Source of the DNA: a virus
Lineage: Duplodnaviria; Caudoviricetes
Virus record (IMG/VR): IMGVR_UViG_2788500073_000001
Location: 1-64,000 of that record
Direction: 5' to 3' (one strand)
DNA length: 64,000 nucleotides
This document shows positions 4,655-60,670 of the stretch, piece after piece; the first letter of the stretch is position 1, and each line of letters begins with the position of its first letter. The position numbers and the translations under genes are program-made. The notes below the pieces were generated by a model. It did no database searches, was not told where the DNA came from, and worked only from the letters and a program-made list of their open reading frames with translations.

Positions 4655-5034
4655 CGCAGCTCCATCCGCTTGGCAGCGGCGACGGTGACTGATTCCACCA
4701 TCACATCCCCCAAGGCGGCCGTCTCGGTGATGCCGGCCCACTCGCAGCCGGAGTAGATGATTTTCCGGTCGGGTTTGACCACTACCACGTTGAAGCCGGA
4801 GAGGTCGAAGAAGCCGATGCCATCGTCCAACCCGCCGGTCAGGCACACCCGGGAGAGCTCCAGAATGTGTTTTACCCGCCCCCCTACCGTGCCCACCGGT
4901 TCGCTGGAACCAAAGGCTTCAATGGTGCGGCTTTCCCGGGTGGACCGGGCCTTATAGCTCTGGACTACGGCCAGCTTTTTGCCGTTGATTTCAATGTAAA
5001 TATCCTTGCTTGTCGGCAGAGAACCAATTGCCAT
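4651..5034 (-). CDS. tail tube protein
   Basis: 127 aa, beta-rich, immediately after the sheath gene; GGAGG RBS. Confidence 0.7.
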   Translation of the reverse strand: MAIGSLPTSKDIYIEINGKKLAVVQSYKARSTRESRTIEAFGSSEPVGTVGGRVKHILELSRVCLTGGLDDGIGFFDLSGFNVVVVKPDRKIIYSGCEWAGITETAALGDVMVESVTVAAAKRMELR

Positions 5035-18289: not shown

Positions 18290-18366
<77 letters not shown>

Positions 18367-18552: not shown

Positions 18553-20265
18553 TTAAAAGCTGTCCATCAAACACTTCTTTCGCTGTTCCGCACCATGGGA
18601 ATAGCGCAAAGTTGTTGATTTATCGGCATGGCCTACGATTTCAGAAATGGATGGCAGATCTTCCGGATGCCTCTGAACCATTTCTGTGATAAAACTATGC
18701 CGTGTAGAATGAACAGTGACATTCTTTACGCCGCAGCTTTCCAAAAAACGCTTGAAGTGCGTATCAAATGTCTTGGGGTCATAGGGCCTAAGCAAAGGAG
18801 TTACCAATAGAAAGTTCTCCGTACCATGATTTGGGCAGTGGTCAACGCTGTAACCTAAAAGCCGCTCCTGGTAGGCGATCAATCTTCTGACGCACTCCTT
18901 CACCTGGGACCCGACCGGGAATTCCCGGATTGACGAGTCTGTTTTTGGCGGGCCTAAATAAAGGCCCGTTTTGTTTTTCTTCTTTGCCCAAGTGTCTACT
19001 CGCTGATAGTCCGGCGCCTGCTGTGCGTTGGGATGTTCCATTCGAGTAAGGGATTTTTCAATCCGGAAAAAACCAATGTTAGATCCGATTTGCCCAAGCT
19101 GCAAACCCAGCAGCTCCCCTTTCCGCATCCCTGTGCGCAGAAGGATCACAACGGCCCAGCCGATGGGGGAGTCAGATTCCATCCCTCTCTCCACCAGTAA
19201 GTTTTCCTGCTCTTCGGTGATAAGAGGGATTGCTTTCGCCCGGTGAAACTTCAGTTCCACTTCTCTGGCCGGATTGTGATCTATGAGTTTTTTGGGATTT
19301 ACCGCATAGTTCAGTGCCTTTTTGAGCATATTCCGCATGTCGGTAAGAGTTTTATGGGATAAACCGCCCTCTTTTCCATCGGCCCGGCCGGAACAGGCTT
19401 TCAAATCAAAGAAACCCTGCAGCATTTCGGTTGTCACTTCCTGAAGCCGGCGTTCACCGAAATGGGGAAGGAAATGGGCCTGGATATACATGCGGTACTT
19501 CTTTTTTGTGCTGGGCCGGAGGCTGGTTTTCCCGGCATGGTCCAGCCAGGACATCAAATAACCGCAAAAAGTATCCTTGTTCTTTCCCACAAACGTACCA
19601 TTGTCGATGGCGACTTGGATAGCCCGGAGTTTCTTCCGGGCCTCTTTTTCTGTGTGCGCATAAACGCTTTCTGTGCGGCCTTTCAAACAATAACGGCCTT
19701 CATAAAAGCCTTCCTTCCTCAACCGCACCCCATCGCGGAAGGGCCCATGCTTTTCGCCTTTTGGCAGCGTGTGCGAACCGTGGAACCTTCCAGCTGGGAA
19801 TCCGGCTGCTTTCAGGATCTCATCCAGGCTTTCTTCCGAATTGGTAAATGCGCCCTGCTGCACGGCTTGTTCAAAAGCGCGGTATTTTGCCTTCGCCTCC
19901 TCTTCAGAGACGGCGCCGATCCGATACTTCTTTCCCTGGACGCGCATCGCAACGCGCCAGGAATTAGGGGAATTGCGGTTGATGTTATAAGAACTGATCG
20001 CCGCCGGCAGCTCTCTCAGAACCCCGGCCGGGTAGCCGTTTTCCTTCAAGTAAAGATCCAAAAGGTCTTTGGAGCCGTCGAACGACTCTTTTTGGGCAAA
20101 TTGAAGCGCAAGATTCAACTTCTTCGTTGCCTCATCACGGGATATTGCTTGCATAAACAGGCGCTTTCCGTGATGAGAAAAGCTGGCTTGCCAAACGCCA
20201 TTGGCGTATCGGCGAATATTCCCTGTCCCCTTTTTACGGGGTAATTCTCCCGTAGATCCTTGCAT
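18553..20265 (-). CDS. int: tyrosine integrase
   Basis: Catalytic R (MRKGE), K (PKT), HSTR, GH and Y (LRYSH); SAM-like core-binding domain; GGAGG RBS. Confidence 0.93.
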   Translation of the reverse strand: MQGSTGELPRKKGTGNIRRYANGVWQASFSHHGKRLFMQAISRDEATKKLNLALQFAQKESFDGSKDLLDLYLKENGYPAGVLRELPAAISSYNINRNSPNSWRVAMRVQGKKYRIGAVSEEEAKAKYRAFEQAVQQGAFTNSEESLDEILKAAGFPAGRFHGSHTLPKGEKHGPFRDGVRLRKEGFYEGRYCLKGRTESVYAHTEKEARKKLRAIQVAIDNGTFVGKNKDTFCGYLMSWLDHAGKTSLRPSTKKKYRMYIQAHFLPHFGERRLQEVTTEMLQGFFDLKACSGRADGKEGGLSHKTLTDMRNMLKKALNYAVNPKKLIDHNPAREVELKFHRAKAIPLITEEQENLLVERGMESDSPIGWAVVILLRTGMRKGELLGLQLGQIGSNIGFFRIEKSLTRMEHPNAQQAPDYQRVDTWAKKKNKTGLYLGPPKTDSSIREFPVGSQVKECVRRLIAYQERLLGYSVDHCPNHGTENFLLVTPLLRPYDPKTFDTHFKRFLESCGVKNVTVHSTRHSFITEMVQRHPEDLPSISEIVGHADKSTTLRYSHGAEQRKKCLMDSF

Positions 20266-20343
20266 AACTGTTCCTCCCTTCTGATCTCGGGACAAACAAA
20301 AACTCGCCTGGCAAATCATTCAGCTGTAAAACGGGTGTGAATA

Positions 20344-29490: not shown

Positions 29491-29650
29491 AAAAAAGGCA
29501 CGGTCGTGCCCAAAAGGGCGCAATCGTGCCGTTAGGTTTCACACCGGCCAGCTGTCAGCATGGACAGAAGGCCTTACTTTACTGCCTCGGTGGGCAGCGA
29601 ATACTTTCATGGAATACCTAGAGTGTACCCCCGTTTTTGTATCGTGTCAA
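29491..29650 (-). repeat. promoter-leader-terminator repeat, copy A
   Basis: TTGACA-17-TACACT, GTATTCCATG, hairpins P1 and P2, 15-bp terminator plus T6. Confidence 0.9.
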
Positions 29651-38135: not shown

Positions 38136-38292
38136 AAAAAAGGCACGGTCGTGCCCAAAAGGGCGCAATCGTGCCGTTAGGTTTCACACCGGCCAAGCGT
38201 CAATGACGAAAGGCCTTACTTTACTGCTTCGGTGAGCAGCGGATACTTTCATGGAATACCTGAAGTATATGCCGCTTTTTGTATCGTGTCAA
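38136..38292 (-). repeat. promoter-leader-terminator repeat, copy B
   Basis: TTGACA-17-TATACT; P1 U-A variant; different inner P2 hairpin. Confidence 0.9.
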
Positions 38293-44561: not shown

Positions 44562-44721
44562 AAAAAAGGCACGGTCGCGCCCAAAAGGGCGCAATCGTGC
44601 CGTTAGGTTTCACACCGGCCAGCTGTCAGTATGGACAGGAGGCCTTACTTTACTGCTTCGGTGAGCAGCGGATACTTTCATGGAATATCTGAAGTGTACC
44701 CCCGTTTTTGTATCGTGTCAA
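44562..44721 (-). repeat. promoter-leader-terminator repeat, copy C
   Basis: Near-identical to copies A and E. Confidence 0.9.
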
Positions 44722-46277: not shown

Positions 46278-46437
46278 AAAAAAGGCACGGTCGCGCCCAG
46301 AAGGGCGCAATCGTGCCGTTAGGTTTCACACCGGCCAGCTGTCAACAGGGACGGGAGGCCTTACTTTACTGCTTCGGTGAGCAGCGGATACTTTCATGGA
46401 ATACCTGAAGTGTACTCCCGTTTTTGTATCGTGTCAA
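46278..46437 (-). repeat. promoter-leader-terminator repeat, copy D
   Basis: Same layout; P2 inner hairpin CCGTC/GACAG. Confidence 0.9.
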
Positions 46438-55299: not shown

Positions 55300-55388
55300 A
55301 TTGTTGATTTTAACATATTAAGTCATTTTTCTTAACTGTGATGTACTCGAAATCATAGTTGGCATACTGTTGCCTTTCTTTCCTCCTC

Positions 55389-55961
55389 TCAAAGCAGATT
55401 CAGATGGGTTTCCAGCGCCTTTTCGATACGCTCCGGTTCAATGCCAATGTACCGCTGGGTTGTCGCCGGCGACGAGTGCTGCAGAAGCCGCTGAACCAGA
55501 GCAATGTCTTTGCCGTTCTCATTATAGATACTGGTGGCAAAGAATTTGCGAAAGGAGTGGGTGCTGATGTTTTCATACCCAGGCCCCAGATAGTCGCACA
55601 CCATGGCCAGGTGGTTCTGGATCGTCCGCTCGGAGATCGGGAAGATCACATCATCGGCCCCAATCTTGTTTTCGATGCAGTAGCTCTGCAGATAGGTGTA
55701 GAGTTCCACCGGGACGGTAAAGGTCCGTTTCTTTTTGGTCTTTTGCTCAATGAGGTCCAGCCGATACCGTCTGCCATCCCGGATGATGTTGCTGAGGGTC
55801 AGCTTACGGGAGATGTCGGAGATCCGCACACCCAGGTTTGCCTCCACTACCAGCGCGGCCGCGACTCGTGGATTGGGCCGGTGATCCAGAAATCCTTCCT
55901 GGATCGTCTTGATGATCTCGACATACTGCTCGGCGGTGAGCGCCACCGTCCGTTTGTTCAT
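55389..55961 (-). CDS. small (catalytic-domain-only) tyrosine recombinase
   Basis: 'GVRISD', 'EQKTKK', 'HSFRK', 'LQHSS..TTQRYIG'; 190 aa. Confidence 0.9.
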   Translation of the reverse strand: MNKRTVALTAEQYVEIIKTIQEGFLDHRPNPRVAAALVVEANLGVRISDISRKLTLSNIIRDGRRYRLDLIEQKTKKKRTFTVPVELYTYLQSYCIENKIGADDVIFPISERTIQNHLAMVCDYLGPGYENISTHSFRKFFATSIYNENGKDIALVQRLLQHSSPATTQRYIGIEPERIEKALETHLNLL

Positions 55962-56112
55962 AAAGTCACCTCCTGATAAAATTGCGTTTTTTCGCGGCCT
56001 AAATTGCGTATTTTTCGCCGTTTTTTCGGCCGTTTTTGAAGAATGGCTTCATTGCTTGATTTTGCGTTGCGTATTTTCATCAAAAAACGCAATCCTGAAT
56101 TGGGATGGAATT

Positions 56113-56427
56113 TCAGCCCTGAATCGCCGAAATTGCTTCGCTCTTAGTTTTGAAAACAGATTTGTTCAAGGCTTCGCCCTCAAAATGATAAAAGCCGTTA
56201 TTATCAAATATTACCAAGGATAAAATCAACTGTTCGTCCTCGTATATGGTGGCAAAAATAATACCGGGTTCGATCTGTTTTGAATCAAAATCAGCGTACC
56301 AGATGGCATCACCAGTATGGAGTGGCACCGGTTTACCGCCCAATCGATCGACTAATCGTAATCCGAAAATTTCTTGCACCTGTCTAATTTTTTCTCGCAG
56401 TTCCTCATTTGACATTGGTTCTATCAT
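56113..56427 (-). CDS. hypothetical protein
   Basis: Coupled ORF; ends in 'VFKTKSEA', a motif common in phage proteins. Confidence 0.55.
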   Translation of the reverse strand: MIEPMSNEELREKIRQVQEIFGLRLVDRLGGKPVPLHTGDAIWYADFDSKQIEPGIIFATIYEDEQLILSLVIFDNNGFYHFEGEALNKSVFKTKSEAISAIQG

Positions 56428-56636
56428 ATTCTCACCCTCAATTCCTGCAGATCGTCCGTTCGGATTCCGACCAGATACCAGTCATCAGCCATCTCGATCC
56501 GAGTGGGCTTCCACTCGCCATCAATCAGGACATCAAAGCATTCCCCGCAGTGCAGGCCGCCGTAGTAGCAGCCAAGATCAAAGCGAATGTCGTACCGATC
56601 CGTTGCGAGGTCATAGATCAAAGTTCCCTGTTTCAT
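56424..56636 (-). CDS. DUF5348-like protein
   Basis: 'GLHCGECFDVLIDGEWKPTRIEM..DWYL'. Confidence 0.75.
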   Translation of the reverse strand: MKQGTLIYDLATDRYDIRFDLGCYYGGLHCGECFDVLIDGEWKPTRIEMADDWYLVGIRTDDLQELRVRI

Positions 56637-57256
56637 AATGAGCTCCTCCCGATTTGGTTGAACGGAATTATTTTTGCTACATGCTGTTCATTGGCCGGAC
56701 GGCTCGACTGATGAGGACTCACATCCTGAAATCCAGCCGGGGACACATGCACATTGGTCAGGATGAACTGGACGGGAATGATCTGGCCGTTCTGCAACAT
56801 CCGCACTTCATAAAACTTAAAACGCCCCGGCGCTTCTAATTTCACATCCGAATTGGTGATCACGCTCTGTACCAGATCCGGCGCCATACTGGCTTTCACG
56901 CCAAGGCTCTGCACTTCATCGGGACCGGCGACAAACGGATTGGCTGCCAGCGCCTCCACCCGTTTTTTCAATTCTTTCTTCGCGGCGCCGAGCGATGCAA
57001 AATATTGGATGTCAAATTCGCGAAGCCCGGTAGTATTGATGTGGCTGAGATCCGCTGTGCTCACTTTATAAATACGGTCATGAGACAGCTCCCAGATAAC
57101 CTTTCTGTGGAGCTTCACAAAATCCCGTTCTTCTTCTGAAAGGTCATCATGGTTCTCCATACCTTCTACAAAATCCTGAAGGTACTGGATCAGTTCATCT
57201 CTGCTCAGGTCACTGATTTCCAAATTTCGATCCTCCTTTGCATTTAATCTCTTCAC
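56633..57256 (-). CDS. hypothetical protein
   Basis: 207-aa ORF with GTG start inside a tandem repeat. Confidence 0.55.
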   Translation of the reverse strand: MKRLNAKEDRNLEISDLSRDELIQYLQDFVEGMENHDDLSEEERDFVKLHRKVIWELSHDRIYKVSTADLSHINTTGLREFDIQYFASLGAAKKELKKRVEALAANPFVAGPDEVQSLGVKASMAPDLVQSVITNSDVKLEAPGRFKFYEVRMLQNGQIIPVQFILTNVHVSPAGFQDVSPHQSSRPANEQHVAKIIPFNQIGRSSL

Positions 57257-57306
57257 TTAATACATTTAATCTCTTCACTTAATATATTTAATCTCTTCAC
57301 TTAATA
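57241..57306. repeat. 3 x 22-bp tandem repeat (CATTTAATCTCTTCACTTAATA)
   Basis: Units at 57241, 57263 and 57285; one mismatch in the third. Confidence 0.9.
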
Positions 57307-57320
57307 TATAGTAAAAAAAA

Positions 57321-57815
57321 TAAAAAAAACGACCAATTCGGCGCGCTCCCGAATTGGTCGTTTGGAGTGTCCACACCTGCTGTGCAGTCAGGTGCTTTCA
57401 CTGCCGTGATTTGGTTGCACACTCCAAATCACACATTGCATAAAAGGAATCCAACAATCCCGCTTTCAGGCTATAGAGCCCTGATCCCAGAGCGGGCAGG
57501 GATTTCGCATCAAACCCAGGCCGGTGCCTCTTCTCCCATGCGAACAGGAGGGGCCATGCGAACTTTATACGGTGTTACCCGTTCAGCCCCGGCATGGTGG
57601 GGGGTGTTGCTGCGTCTCCTGAACACAGCGCAAAGGATGTTCACGCTCTGTTCAGGAGACGAAAGGGAAAATACATTAACGAGACGGAGTTATGCGCTTT
57701 TTGGAAGCGACCCACATTCTCGCCGGTCCATTTGCGGTTTCCTGGAGTGTTCTCAACAGGAAGGGCCGCCATGCTCACCCATTTTACCGGGCAAGGAAAG
57801 TATTACATGGAATAC
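57321..57815 (-). ncRNA. candidate ~490-nt structured ncRNA
   Basis: Own TTGACA-17-TACAAT promoter (57822-57850), many hairpins, 15-bp terminator at 57327-57363 plus U run; no ORF-track entry on this strand. Confidence 0.6.
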
Positions 57816-57990
57816 ACTTAAATTGTAGACGCATTTTTGTATCGTGTCAACAACTTGCTAAGGTATTTCCCTCCTCATTTTCGCAAAAAGAAAAAAGCCA
57901 CCCGCAGGTGGCTTTTAAAGAGTGGTATACTAAATTTCCGAACCCAGAAAAGTGCTTTCTCCTCTCGGCGAAAGCACCTTTCCTGTTTAA

Positions 57991-58482
57991 TTACATGAAC
58001 TCGATTTGTCCGCCATCAAAGCGATAAAGCGGGATTTCATTTTCTTTTGCGAATTCGATCTCCTGCTGCATCCCTGCCGAGATCACCGGCCCACAGATTA
58101 CCAGGCCGGAGCAATGGCGTAGCACTTCAAAGTCAAACGCCATCGCAGCTTCCCGAGAGGCTGGATCGGAATCATCCAGCTCGTTGGGCAGCGAGGTGTG
58201 TGGAGCATAGGCATAGACCTGTTCTCCGGGGAAATCAGCAGCCATCAGCTTGCCGACCTCGGCTTCGTAGCGTTCTGCAGCAGCCATATTAGCCTGTACA
58301 GCTTCCGGTGTTGCCGCAGACAATGGAGAGGCAACATAAAACACCAGGCTTTGTGTTGGGTACTCTCTGATTTCAAGATACCGGTTGCACGCATGGCACC
58401 ACAAACCGACAAACGGCGTTGCGGCTGCTTCGGACCAAATCACCTCTAATGGATGCCCTTGATGAAAATGATGTTTTTTCAT
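57991..58482 (-). CDS. DUF4406 / nucleoside deoxyribosyltransferase-like protein
   Basis: 'YVASP', 'APH', 'C..LVICG..IS.GM..EI..A...IP'. Confidence 0.7.
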   Translation of the reverse strand: MKKHHFHQGHPLEVIWSEAAATPFVGLWCHACNRYLEIREYPTQSLVFYVASPLSAATPEAVQANMAAAERYEAEVGKLMAADFPGEQVYAYAPHTSLPNELDDSDPASREAAMAFDFEVLRHCSGLVICGPVISAGMQQEIEFAKENEIPLYRFDGGQIEFM

Positions 58483-58491
58483 AGCAATACC

Positions 58492-58953
58492 TCAGAAGGG
58501 CAGGTCATCTTCGTCCCCGTCGATTTCCTGGAAATCATCCAGGGACGGAGCTACATAGCGGGTCTGATCGTTCGAAGAAGTGCGGGGCGCAGCTGTAGCC
58601 GCCGGAGCAGATTCGCTTCCGGTTGTCCTGTCCCTCTTGCTGCCACAGAACTCGAACTTCTGGACCTCAAATTCCACCATGGTGATGGGATACTGCTGGC
58701 CTTCGATCTCTTTTTTATAGGAAGTGTACTGCGCTTCGATCAGCAGCTCGCTTCCTTTCTGCGTGTTATTGGCCAGACGTTCAGCGACACTCTGCCAGGC
58801 AACAAAAGAAGGGTATTCGGTGATCGTCCCCTTTTTTGAGCCGGCATAGCGATCGCAGGCAAGCTGGAACCGGCAGACGGAAATGCCGCTGTTGGTTTTC
58901 TTCAGTTCAATATCCTTTGTGAGACGGCCGTGAAAAATGTTCTTCATAAACAT
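58492..58953 (-). CDS. ssb: single-stranded DNA-binding protein
   Basis: 'GRLTKDIELK.T..G..V..F.LA', 'KGS'; C-terminal 'DDLPF'. Confidence 0.92.
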   Translation of the reverse strand: MFMKNIFHGRLTKDIELKKTNSGISVCRFQLACDRYAGSKKGTITEYPSFVAWQSVAERLANNTQKGSELLIEAQYTSYKKEIEGQQYPITMVEFEVQKFEFCGSKRDRTTGSESAPAATAAPRTSSNDQTRYVAPSLDDFQEIDGDEDDLPF

Positions 58954-58972
58954 AGTTTTTTCCTCCTGTACT

Positions 58973-59248
58973 TTAATAAATCTCGCCGCAATCCAAGGCT
59001 CCATCCGGGTCATCCGGAGGAAGGCGGTAGACGCTTTTTCCCTCGGAAATGGTGCGGATCATTTCTTCCATGACAACCTGAGCCTGCTTTTCAGAACGGT
59101 ATGTAGCAATCGTGCGATTATGGCTGCCGACACCATAATAGAAGATTTTGATCTCGGTTTCCCCCATGACCGTGCCAGGTGCAGCGTCCACCTTAAAGAT
59201 GGAATCAAAATTGACGATGGTTTTTTTGTTTTGTGATACAATAATCAT
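58973..59248 (-). CDS. hypothetical protein
   Basis: AGGAGG RBS; 'IVSQNKK.IVNF', 'ATY.SE..A..V..E'; first gene behind repeat E. Confidence 0.6.
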   Translation of the reverse strand: MIIVSQNKKTIVNFDSIFKVDAAPGTVMGETEIKIFYYGVGSHNRTIATYRSEKQAQVVMEEMIRTISEGKSVYRLPPDDPDGALDCGEIY

Positions 59249-59337
59249 TTTGTATCCTCCTTTTGTTTTTGGTTAAGGTTTCATCGACATCTATAGGAAA
59301 AGAACCTACTTGGTATAGAAGGTCCTTGAATTTTCAC

Positions 59338-59498
59338 AAAAAAAGGCACGGTCACGCCCAAAAGGGCGCAATCGTGCCGTTAGGTTTCACACCGGCCAGC
59401 TGTCAGCATGGACAGGAGGCCTTACTTTACTGCTTCGGTGAGCAGCAGATACTTTCATGGAATATCTGAAGTGTACCCCCGTTTTTGTATCGTGTCAA
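59338..59498 (-). repeat. promoter-leader-terminator repeat, copy E
   Basis: Near-identical to copies A and C. Confidence 0.9.
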
Positions 59499-59521
59499 GG
59501 GCTTTTCCCCAAGCATCATTA

Positions 59522-60319
59522 TCAATTTTCACTTCCGCCTTTCGCCTCTTCGGTATACATGAGGTTCTGACGGCTGATGTAACCACTCTTTTGCAACAGC
59601 TCGGTGAGATCCTTGACAGCATTCTGCAGATACGGGTTGTCCTCAAAGCTCTTTTTGGCCGCCGCACAGGCAGAGTATTCCTGCTGGGCCTCGGCCAGGA
59701 TCGACTGCCGCTTGTCGATTTCCTCCTGGATATTTCGAAGGAAGCCTTCCGTATTGTCACAGGCACGGGTGGCGTCCTCCCGTGTATACCAGCCCAAGCC
59801 AGTGAGATAGCGTTTAAGGGCCCCGCGCTTATTAAAGGAAGTCTTTTTCAGAGGGATCTCGCCGGCACAGATAGTGCGCACACGGCTTTCCAGTTCCCGC
59901 ATCTCCTTTACGTTGTCCTCAGCTGTCTTCTGCTGCTTTTCGGCATCCCGCAGCCGATACCGCAATCCGTTGGCCACCGACTCATAGGTGGATTCATAAC
60001 GGTGTGCCTTGATGTCAATGACCATCAACTCAAATTGTGGATCGCGGTAACAGATCCGCAGAGGTGACAGCGGCTTATCACTGGCCCGTGTGATCTTGCA
60101 GTTGGCCAATGCCGGCAGTTTCCCAATCTGCTGGATCAGGACTTCATAAAGTTCATCTTCCGCATAACCCAAAAACTCCAAGGTCTTTTGCAGAAGATTC
60201 GGCTTATATGCGTCGTAAAATTCGCTGAGGATCCGCGCAGGGTCTTCAACGATACTGCTAAGCCGGTCAACTTCTTCATGGATTTCCTTTACTTTCAAAT
60301 CAAATTCACGCTTGTCCAT
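59522..60319 (-). CDS. coiled-coil hypothetical protein
   Basis: GAGGAGG RBS; 265 aa. Confidence 0.65.
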   Translation of the reverse strand: MDKREFDLKVKEIHEEVDRLSSIVEDPARILSEFYDAYKPNLLQKTLEFLGYAEDELYEVLIQQIGKLPALANCKITRASDKPLSPLRICYRDPQFELMVIDIKAHRYESTYESVANGLRYRLRDAEKQQKTAEDNVKEMRELESRVRTICAGEIPLKKTSFNKRGALKRYLTGLGWYTREDATRACDNTEGFLRNIQEEIDKRQSILAEAQQEYSACAAAKKSFEDNPYLQNAVKDLTELLQKSGYISRQNLMYTEEAKGGSEN

Positions 60320-60670
60320 GATTTTCGCCTCCTCTACTTAATATATAGTAAATTTTTTGAAATTTACGACCAAAAAAGTACGCTGCAATTTGACAAACAT
60401 AGAAAGAGAAGCTATAATAATAATTGAAAGAAAGGGGCGCTAAAAACGGTCCGACCAACCGAGTCCCGGCCTTTCGCTTTATCACAAATAGAGATACACT
60501 TACCATTTGTCTGTTCCTCTTTTGTGGTTTTTGGTTAAAAGATTTCTATGTAAGCACTTACAAGAAAGCCGCTCGAAAGGGCGGCTTTCTTGTTTGGACA
60601 AAAAGAAAAGAGCCCTTATGCAAGTTGGTGCATAAGGGCTCTTTTGCTGTTCTGATGAAAAGGAATTGTT

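Follow-up and report, generated by a model that had tools for sequence, protein, structure and literature searches.

It is rare for a large bacterial RNA to have many covarying helices together with tertiary contacts, and new biology has come from each class known so far. ROOL, GOLLD, OLE and raiA are large, ornate bacterial non-coding RNAs held in Rfam, of which ROOL and GOLLD are often located on prophages or mobile DNA. In type III (ToxIN-like) toxin-antitoxin systems, the antitoxin RNAs are tandem repeats of about 34–40 nt. Here we describe a predicted RNA of about 495 nt on the minus strand of the virus record IMGVR_UViG_2788500073_000001 (G000; 80,312 b), which is classed as a provirus and estimated to be 74% complete. 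The window analyzed was the first 64,000 nucleotides of this record, in which the RNA is located directly upstream of a gene for a 196-amino-acid (aa) protein (Table 1).

The described systems closest to this locus are those of Gram-positive mobile elements. In the sections of the reports cited here, canT of Tn916 is a 452-nt processive antiterminator RNA that has a complex predicted structure and acts in cis; our locus resembles it in having a large RNA on a mobile element of this kind, with a promoter before it and terminators and genes after it (PMC11658703). The conAn system (ConAn1 and conAn2) of pLS20-type plasmids, as outlined in the cited section, likewise combines a large RNA with a small adjacent protein gene on Firmicutes conjugative elements, the conAn2 region being a 383-bp intergenic interval (PMC8191782). 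For the zipper-type system cATT, the part of the report used here describes a 456-nt attenuator leader of pLS20, which our RNA resembles in its similar length, its long hairpin and a terminator before the first genes (PMC13401043). The same plasmid has a terminator, TerR, with a 15-bp stem and a 7-nt loop, the long stem of which resists processive antitermination; the average stem of Bacillus terminators is given in the cited section as 9 ± 2 bp (PMC10325885).

Analyses of the window and of related loci confirmed that this is a true non-coding RNA, conserved and structured, whose family is not in Rfam, and made it very probable that this conserved structure is that of an RNA transcribed from the minus strand. 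The promoter at 57850–57822, of the sigma-70/sigma-A type, was the sole promoter-like site identified by a promoter scan of positions 56500–58600. The start of the RNA was placed about 7 nt past the -10 box and its end at the T run, both positions being predicted. The perfect 15-bp terminator that a preliminary description of this DNA had seen at the end of the RNA was confirmed at 57363–57327, with a 7-nt loop and a T run, and this geometry is the same as that given for TerR of pLS20 in the section cited above. A second terminator, at 57916–57893, is by its sequence an insulator of the RNA gene against the upstream operon of the single-stranded DNA-binding protein (SSB). Based on these two terminators, the unit was considered to be bracketed on both sides. 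The minus-strand open reading frames (ORFs) across the RNA were of at most 45 aa, in agreement with the earlier statement that about 490 nt follow the promoter without a credible ORF on that strand.

Related DNA was not found by blastn in phage or plasmid records, exact and degenerate DNA patterns and protein-guided scans identified no homologue among viral contigs, and in species genomes the DNA patterns gave nothing and a protein-guided scan gave seven pattern matches, none of which was confirmed. The search for homologues was therefore routed via the downstream 196-aa gene. A tblastn search with the 196-aa protein gave no match in plasmid and phage records, and a metagenome scan with alignment A2 of the 196-aa family, which was the sole source of loci, identified 11 metagenome loci. 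RNA-related sequence was present upstream of the 196-aa gene in all 11. Ten of the loci were recognized by blastn; the eleventh, L019, is a truncated contig on which just the final ~260 nt of the RNA remain. The loci fell into three lineages: lineage A, consisting of the window and L010–L013 (identity 98–100%); lineage B, consisting of L014 and L020 (~69% identity to the window over ~507 nt); and lineage C, consisting of L015–L019, of which blastn aligned parts only. The upstream neighbor of the RNA differs in lineage C, and the linkage to the 196-aa gene still held in 11 of 11 loci.

The whole unit of upstream terminator, promoter, RNA and terminator was kept in lineages A, B and C. The RNA promoter of lineages B and C is TTGACA-17-TATAAT, which matches the consensus at 12 of 12 positions, and terminators of 12–14 pairs precede it. 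In each of the three lineages the RNA has a length of 491–506 nt and ends in a terminator with a 15-pair stem, a 6–7-nt loop and a T run. Four sequencing runs, in which the shares were small, were compared with positions 55300–60400, a comparison in which uncovered parts carry no meaning. In two metatranscriptome runs from two studies, contigs of depth 2 and 100% identity were located within the RNA (57346–57574 and 57594–57744), and in both runs the RNA-internal contig was the only contig on this interval. Two further runs, probably of DNA, cover flanking genes. Over the four runs together, only four short contigs were located near the RNA, and two of these came from the probable DNA runs. 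The metatranscriptome contigs give only a weak hint of expression of the RNA.

The predicted minimum free energy of the window RNA was -194.8 kcal/mol, in comparison to -160.6 ± 6.2 kcal/mol for 100 shuffled sequences (z -5.5), not one of which was as stable. Covariation was assessed in alignment A3, which contains 8 distinct sequences in 528 columns, the duplicates (L011 of L010, L013 of L012 and L018 of L015) and the cut L019 having been left out. RNAalifold predicted 115 pairs on A3, 41 of which had at least one double-sided change with the pairing kept, and 95.5% of the 917 cells were paired. With the 3' partners slid by 1–3 columns, 36–45% of the cells were paired and only 5–6 pairs had double changes. 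In four of five measures (cells paired, pairs with double changes, cells with double changes and the covariation score), none of 500 shuffles matched the observed value; the fifth, the number of further pair types, did not exceed that of shuffles (499/500), as expected from only three lineages. Among the paired cells there were 75 G-U/U-G and 15 A-C/C-A combinations, an excess that places the structure on the transcribed strand, and two pairs were G-U in 8 of 8 sequences. The large, highly structured RNA of the preliminary description was borne out by the folding energy and the covariation, and examination of homologues, as had been suggested, showed that the fold was kept across three diverged lineages.

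In outline, the fold would comprise a strongly conserved set of 5' hairpins, then the 21-bp rod and a core of several helices that includes a candidate pseudoknot, and, on the 3' side, two hairpins with kissing loops. The best-supported helices were P4, hairpin Y and the terminator, in which 7 of 14 pairs were double-changed, together with P7, P9, P8 and P5. P4 is the long rod hairpin that had been recognized from the window sequence, and it was conserved. P1, P3, X and the pseudoknot stem were out of register for lineage C in A3, as aligned by MAFFT, and for this reason they were not counted for covariation and were judged from per-sequence folds. When modules were folded singly in six sequences, alike hairpins were obtained from differing sequences, including those of P1 and X.

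The two 3' hairpins for which kissing loops had been proposed, X and Y, were both present, and all 8 sequences had complementary X and Y loops, the pairing extending over 6, 6, 7, 5, 5, 8, 8 and 8 nt. This complementarity was reached by 0 to 38 of 500 loop shuffles (12 of 500 for the 6 nt of the window), and the pairing was longer in L012 and in lineage C via changes in both loops. From the sequences, a kissing interaction of the X and Y loops is supported. Less certain is a candidate long-range helix of nearly invariant sequence, predicted by RNAalifold between GCAACACC and the X loop, which competes with the kissing interaction. The candidate pseudoknot that the AUCCC/GGGAU stem would form is also less certain; this stem, identified by eye, encloses the 5' strand of P9, and its lineage C counterpart is CUCC/GGAG, as opposed to AUCCC/GGGAU in both other lineages.

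Comparison of the whole window with Rfam 15 (4227 families) at the gathering threshold identified only the tRNA at 18290–18363. With E up to 10, positions 57200–58000 gave 23 weak matches, mostly on terminators, the best of which (23.5 bits) was far under threshold, and at E up to 0.05 no family matched the RNA in the loci of lineages B and C. The Rfam comparison that had been proposed thus returned no family for the RNA. No description of it was found in the literature searches made or in Rfam, and supplementary bulk predictions may list it. The RNA is similar to ROOL, GOLLD, OLE and raiA in its hundreds of nucleotides, its many covarying helices, its tertiary contacts and its absence of coding capacity; it differs from them in matching no Rfam family and in being far narrower in distribution, with three lineages of one element family. 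There is also some likeness to type III toxin-antitoxin loci, in which a promoter, a structured RNA, a terminator and a protein gene without a clear promoter are arranged in this order, with a high ratio of RNA to protein. However, Tandem Repeats Finder detected no tandem repeats in 57320–57860, a result that does not fit a type III antitoxin RNA, and the protein here has no match to a known family (PADLOC was not searched).

Table 1. Positions of the RNA, its structural parts and associated features; coordinates are those of the window unless a locus or record is named
Feature	Position	Strand	Remarks
Upstream intrinsic terminator	57893..57916	-	10 pairs then T run; closes SSB/DUF7768 operon
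Promoter (sigma-70/sigma-A type)	57822..57850	-	TTGACA-17-TACAAT; consensus match 11/12
RNA body	57322..57815	-	~495 nt, structured non-coding; fold, covariation, no coding signal
P2, three-part hairpin	57734..57769	-	sequence nearly invariant; 11 pairs, 100% of cells paired, 1 compensatory pair
P4, rod hairpin	57613..57661	-	21 bp; 100% of cells paired, 6 pairs double-changed
P8 (CAUGC/GCAUG) around conserved GGGGCUGA motif, and hairpin P5	57555..57596	-	100% paired, one compensatory pair each
P7 hairpin	57504..57544	-	conserved purine-rich internal loops (GGAGAAGAGGC ... GUUU); 4 pairs double-changed
P9/P9a and candidate pseudoknot stem AUCCC/GGGAU	57459..57503	-	consensus helices; pseudoknot by eye
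Hairpin X	57406..57432	-	loop with GUGUGC; hairpin in 6/6 folded sequences, differing stems
Hairpin Y	57364..57405	-	loop with GCACA, complementary to loop X; 10/13 pairs double-changed
RNA terminator, long-stem intrinsic	57319..57363	-	15-bp stem, 7-nt loop at 57363–57327, T run
Three tandem 22-nt repeats	57242..57309	-	period 22, 3.1 copies, 97% matches
196-aa protein gene	56633..57223	-	follows the RNA immediately at all loci found
Leader cassettes, window	29520–29650, 38160–38292, 44590–44721, 46310–46437, 59365–59498	-	promoter-leader-terminator
Leader cassettes, rest of record	G000 64898, 67898, 78179		promoter-leader-terminator
Leader cassettes, lineage B	L014 2180–2354, 8393–8560		
Leader cassettes, lineage C	L016 239–377; L017 1931–2065; L018 7525–7629		

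The gene downstream of the RNA starts with TTG at 57223, with AAGGAGG ahead of it, and its protein belongs to a small family of 14 clusters, with 20 representatives among 1.84 billion proteins. The 196-aa protein had no Pfam or PHROGs match, and a PDB profile search gave no match either. Its structural model comprised a helical hairpin and an alpha/beta domain, with a predicted local distance difference test score (pLDDT) of 77.7 (49 in an earlier model). Foldseek with this model found nothing at E up to 0.001, a wide structural search matched only the N-terminal helical hairpin (Z up to 6.7), and the ESM Atlas gave a single unnamed cluster (0.87). In alignment A4 of the family, a disordered and often basic linker is followed by a conserved hydrophobic (I/V)(I/V)PF-like motif at the C-terminus. 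We presume this end to be like the C-terminal tip of SSB, which docks partner proteins; the C-terminus of the element's own SSB is DDLPF. The interval from the RNA terminator to the ribosome-binding site of the gene contains the 22-nt repeats, which are reduced to a single copy in L012 and L013 and are missing from lineages B and C. These repeats are probably not part of the RNA and could represent a variable-number binding site or slippage.

With regard to function, the reading that we favor, at about an even chance, is that the locus produces a discrete RNA that works via its fold, perhaps together with the adjacent protein, as a trans-acting RNA or ribonucleoprotein (RNP) rather than as a cis-acting leader. 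The near-consensus, housekeeping-type promoter would drive a discrete RNA of ~495 nt, and the terminator upstream would shield the unit from the SSB operon. Based on its likeness to the long-stem TerR, the 15-bp-stem terminator was taken to be a hard stop at which most transcripts would end, with the RNA accumulating as a separate molecule. The RNA would then act by its folded shape, as a scaffold or with a protein partner, and not by pairing with the leader repeats described below. The most likely partner would be the 196-aa protein, whose gene would have low expression, fed by leak-through or by a weak promoter of its own, leaving the RNA in large excess. The module would be situated in the replication and maintenance part of a gut mobile-element family, which has SSB, helicases and a small tyrosine recombinase.

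Several points weigh against this interpretation. The ends, strand and abundance of the transcript are all predicted from sequence, and the two low-depth contigs from the RNA runs might stem from DNA carry-over. As there are three lineages only, each compensatory change represents few independent events. All the homologues belong to one element family with conserved gene order, so the adjacency of RNA and protein may be plain synteny. Structure searches with the model of the 196-aa protein found no recognizable RNA-binding fold, and the window copy of the protein is acidic (pI 5.5), most of its relatives having a pI near 9. Moreover, lineages A and B gave no credible promoter belonging to the 196-aa gene itself, so that its expression may depend on read-through from the RNA promoter, as it would for a leader. 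Lastly, cis-acting RNAs of similar size are described on Gram-positive conjugative elements, in the sections cited above, both as antiterminators (canT and conAn2) and as the attenuator leader of pLS20 (PMC13401043).

The latter points are those that favor the main alternative, in which the RNA is a cis-acting leader of the downstream operon, either as a canT/conAn2-like processive antiterminator or as a protein- or ligand-dependent attenuator. The operon would consist of the 196-aa gene, a gene for DUF5348 (for which no literature was found) or an exonuclease, the 104-aa gene and the small tyrosine recombinase. We regard this as possible, and clearly less probable than a free RNA. Promoter, RNA, terminator and genes are on one strand, and lineages A and B have no good separate promoter for the genes. 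The size and complexity of the RNA are comparable to those given for canT (PMC11658703) and the conAn2 region (PMC8191782) and to the length of the pLS20 leader (PMC13401043) in the sections cited, and the eight promoter-leader-terminator cassettes on the element indicate that regulated termination is clearly used there. However, the conserved pairing that sequesters a terminator arm, which a zipper-type or riboswitch-type attenuator requires, was not found: in six sequences no alternative pairing to either terminator arm was better than that of 200 shuffled arms, and the best partners were at differing places. This search covered the defining feature of cATT in the cited section, pairing of a stem-loop farther upstream with the terminator, which was not found in the RNA. 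A 10-bp alternative pairing next to the terminator, reported earlier, is present in the window and in lineage A only, lineages B and C having lost it or never had it. The proposal of a very long attenuator for the downstream genes, in the form of a pairing switch, was consequently not upheld.

The comparison with the antiterminator systems gave a similar picture. The RNA terminator has the long-stem geometry that, in the part of the pLS20 report cited, resists conAn antitermination (PMC10325885), and an antiterminator straight before such a strong terminator, with nothing separating the two conditionally, has no obvious logic. By contrast, canT is described in the cited section as acting on terminators only once excision has joined them to it (PMC11658703), whereas here the long-stem terminator directly follows the RNA. 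That section reports no conserved covarying fold for canT, and by this description the RNA is set apart from it. In the conAn system, as outlined in the cited section, conAn2 is downstream of conAn1 (PMC8191782), whereas here the RNA is upstream of the protein gene and is followed by a terminator of the conAn-resistant type. A search for PF17362 (pXO2-34, the ConAn1 domain) with an E-value limit of 1 gave nothing anywhere in the 80,312-b record, which is estimated to be 74% complete, so the whole element might still encode it. The RNA was not assigned to conAn, there being no PF17362 protein beside it and no Pfam match for the 196-aa protein. In addition, lineage C has a promoter site matching 9 of 12 positions past the RNA terminator and ahead of the gene of the 196-aa family.

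The RNA shares part of its promoter with a family of short leaders. The 17-mer TTGACACGATACAAAAA, which covers the -35 box and spacer, has six occurrences in the window, in comparison to 0.18 expected, and none of 100 shuffles reached six; in the whole record it occurs nine times. Every one of these copies is on the minus strand; eight lead into a conserved leader of ~115–130 nt that ends in a terminator, and the ninth leads into the RNA. The leader cassette is a conserved structured element in all three lineages, with two covarying hairpins, conserved linkers like AAGUAAGG and UUUGAAAC, a nearly invariant terminator with an internal loop, GGCACGAUUGCGC, and a -10 box that is always TAnACT. 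It had no Rfam match in the window at the gathering threshold. The leader alignment, A5, was too short on the lineage A rows and was used for the 5' two-thirds only. In its construction the cassette looks like a distributed attenuator awaiting one common factor. A 345-aa protein with a sigma-70 region 2 is encoded on the minus strand at 5019–6056 of L021 (68019–69056 of G000), and is a candidate that could read the TAnACT leader promoters.

The RNA had been described as the sixth copy of the promoter of these repeats. In lineage A, and there only, this was correct for the -35/spacer 17-mer and for ~10 transcribed bases directly after the promoter (GTATTCCATG), which are common to the RNA and the leader copies. 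The -10 box is a different one, being TACAAT at the RNA as opposed to TACACT or TATACT in the eight leader copies of the record, and TACAAT or TATAAT at the RNA as opposed to TACACT, TATACT or TAAACT at the leaders across the lineages. In lineages B and C the RNA and leader promoters have only TTGACA in common, differing in both spacer and -10 box, which leaves a weaker case for the co-regulation with the repeat operons that had been inferred. Outside the promoter, local alignment found likeness of the RNA and leaders in the first 10–20 transcribed bases only. This 5' tag was strong in lineage C (z 6.6 and 10.4; 0 of 300 shuffles) and weak in lineage A (z 1.6–1.7), and in lineage B local alignment found no similarity outside the promoter. 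Judged from the sequences, the shared tag, which co-varies by lineage, could be a DNA-level operator. The RNA was not taken as a member of the leader family, as the likeness ends at the 5' tag and the terminator GGCACGAUUGCGC is not present in the RNA. In lineage C, helix P3 is located ~105–130 nt past the RNA start, about where the short leaders hold their terminator, and it was flagged there as terminator-like (L017 3558–3579; 7 pairs and a T-rich tail); in lineages A and B it was unflagged. On sequence grounds, the 5' part of the RNA and the leaders may share an origin, of which this likeness in lineage C would be a remnant.

An extension of the free, fold-dependent RNA, and an unlikely one in our estimation, is that an RNP with the 196-aa orphan protein is the master switch of the element's eight promoter-attenuator cassettes. 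Such a particle might hold or release the factor deciding termination at the leaders, so that one RNA would gate the whole element. Taken jointly with the claim of a previously undescribed, ornate RNA class of gut Firmicutes-type mobile elements, folded compactly by a pseudoknot and kissing loops, this has the same low probability.

A further alternative is that the RNA is the base-pairing partner in trans of the leaders, controlling their read-through, or a decoy for a leader-binding factor. As had been anticipated, RNA and leader family occur together, both being present in all three lineages; in addition, the 5' 10–20 bases of the RNA resemble the leaders of its own lineage in A and C, and the RNA promoter has the better -10 box. 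In opposition to this, antisense complementarity was at shuffle level in every lineage: the best RNA-leader duplexes and the longest complementary words were no better than those of shuffles (35/100, 47/100 and 8/100 in one comparison; 49/100, 18/100 and 94/100 in another), and the best sites were at non-homologous places in the different lineages. Past the 5' tag there was no significant similarity, with none at all in lineage B, and a common protein-binding motif was not identified. The idea of a base-pairing, trans-acting partner, which the preliminary description had raised, is thus unsupported, and we consider this alternative improbable.

Slightly more improbable still is that the conserved pairs serve single-stranded DNA, as a single-strand origin or initiation site in rolling-circle replication or transfer. 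Sites of this kind are long, structured, orientation-specific non-coding stretches, the neighbors of the RNA include SSB and UvrD-like and RecD2-like helicases, and DNA and RNA are not separable by covariation alone. Against this are a promoter for double-stranded DNA matching 11–12 of 12 consensus positions just upstream and beyond the structured region, and a T-run terminator just downstream, both in three lineages, the many G-U pairs (75 cells), which are weaker in DNA, and, as a weak point, the RNA-library contigs inside the region.

That the region is a coding gene, or a decayed one, in the form of a plus-strand ORF of 153 aa (57367–57828) is practically excluded: antisense ORFs of 107–151 aa are present in all three lineages but differ in frame, start and extent, with only 128 aa already in the 98%-identical L012; the 153-aa ORF has no Pfam match; substitutions in the RNA between lineages had no 3-base periodicity (p 0.20, 0.96, 0.50, 0.996 and 0.90, in comparison to 8e-7, 2e-7 and 1.5e-6 for the adjacent 196-aa gene); most of the indels are not multiples of 3; the compensatory changes suit pairing, not codons; and the check for a conserved coding signal in overlapping plus-strand ORFs accordingly detected none.

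The genes of the record give the setting of the RNA. A Pfam scan of 38 proteins identified integrases, SSB and UvrD-like, RecD2-like and SNF2-type helicases, and also an actin-like partition protein, a YqaJ nuclease, a sortase, a signal peptidase and a sigma-70 region-2 protein; no capsid, portal, tail, type IV secretion or relaxase family was identified by Pfam among them. The tRNA gene at 18290–18363 adjoins the gene of a 588-aa tyrosine integrase (18553–20319), and their junction is probably the attachment site and left boundary of the element. The order of genes near the RNA is conserved in lineage C. The upstream half of the locus has a gene for a 265–268-aa protein, a leader, SSB, variable genes and the RNA, in this order; downstream of the RNA come the 196-aa gene, then a variable gene, then one of ~104 aa, and finally the small tyrosine recombinase. 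By eye, we take the 106- and 108-aa genes between SSB and the RNA (L017 2678–3308) to resemble an antitoxin-toxin pair, and the 292-aa gene after the 193-aa gene (L017 4607–5485) presumably resembles a DnaQ-type exonuclease.

In this RNA a clean transcription unit coincides with covariation that is strong for its size and with an invariable protein neighbor of no known family, on an element that has its genes behind eight near-identical promoter-attenuator cassettes. If it is trans-acting, it would be a new class of RNA or RNP in mobile-element biology, and if it is cis-acting, it would provide the first covariation-supported structure among the large antiterminator RNAs (canT, conAn2). In either case, the RNA may bear on how the genes of gut mobile elements are silenced or switched.

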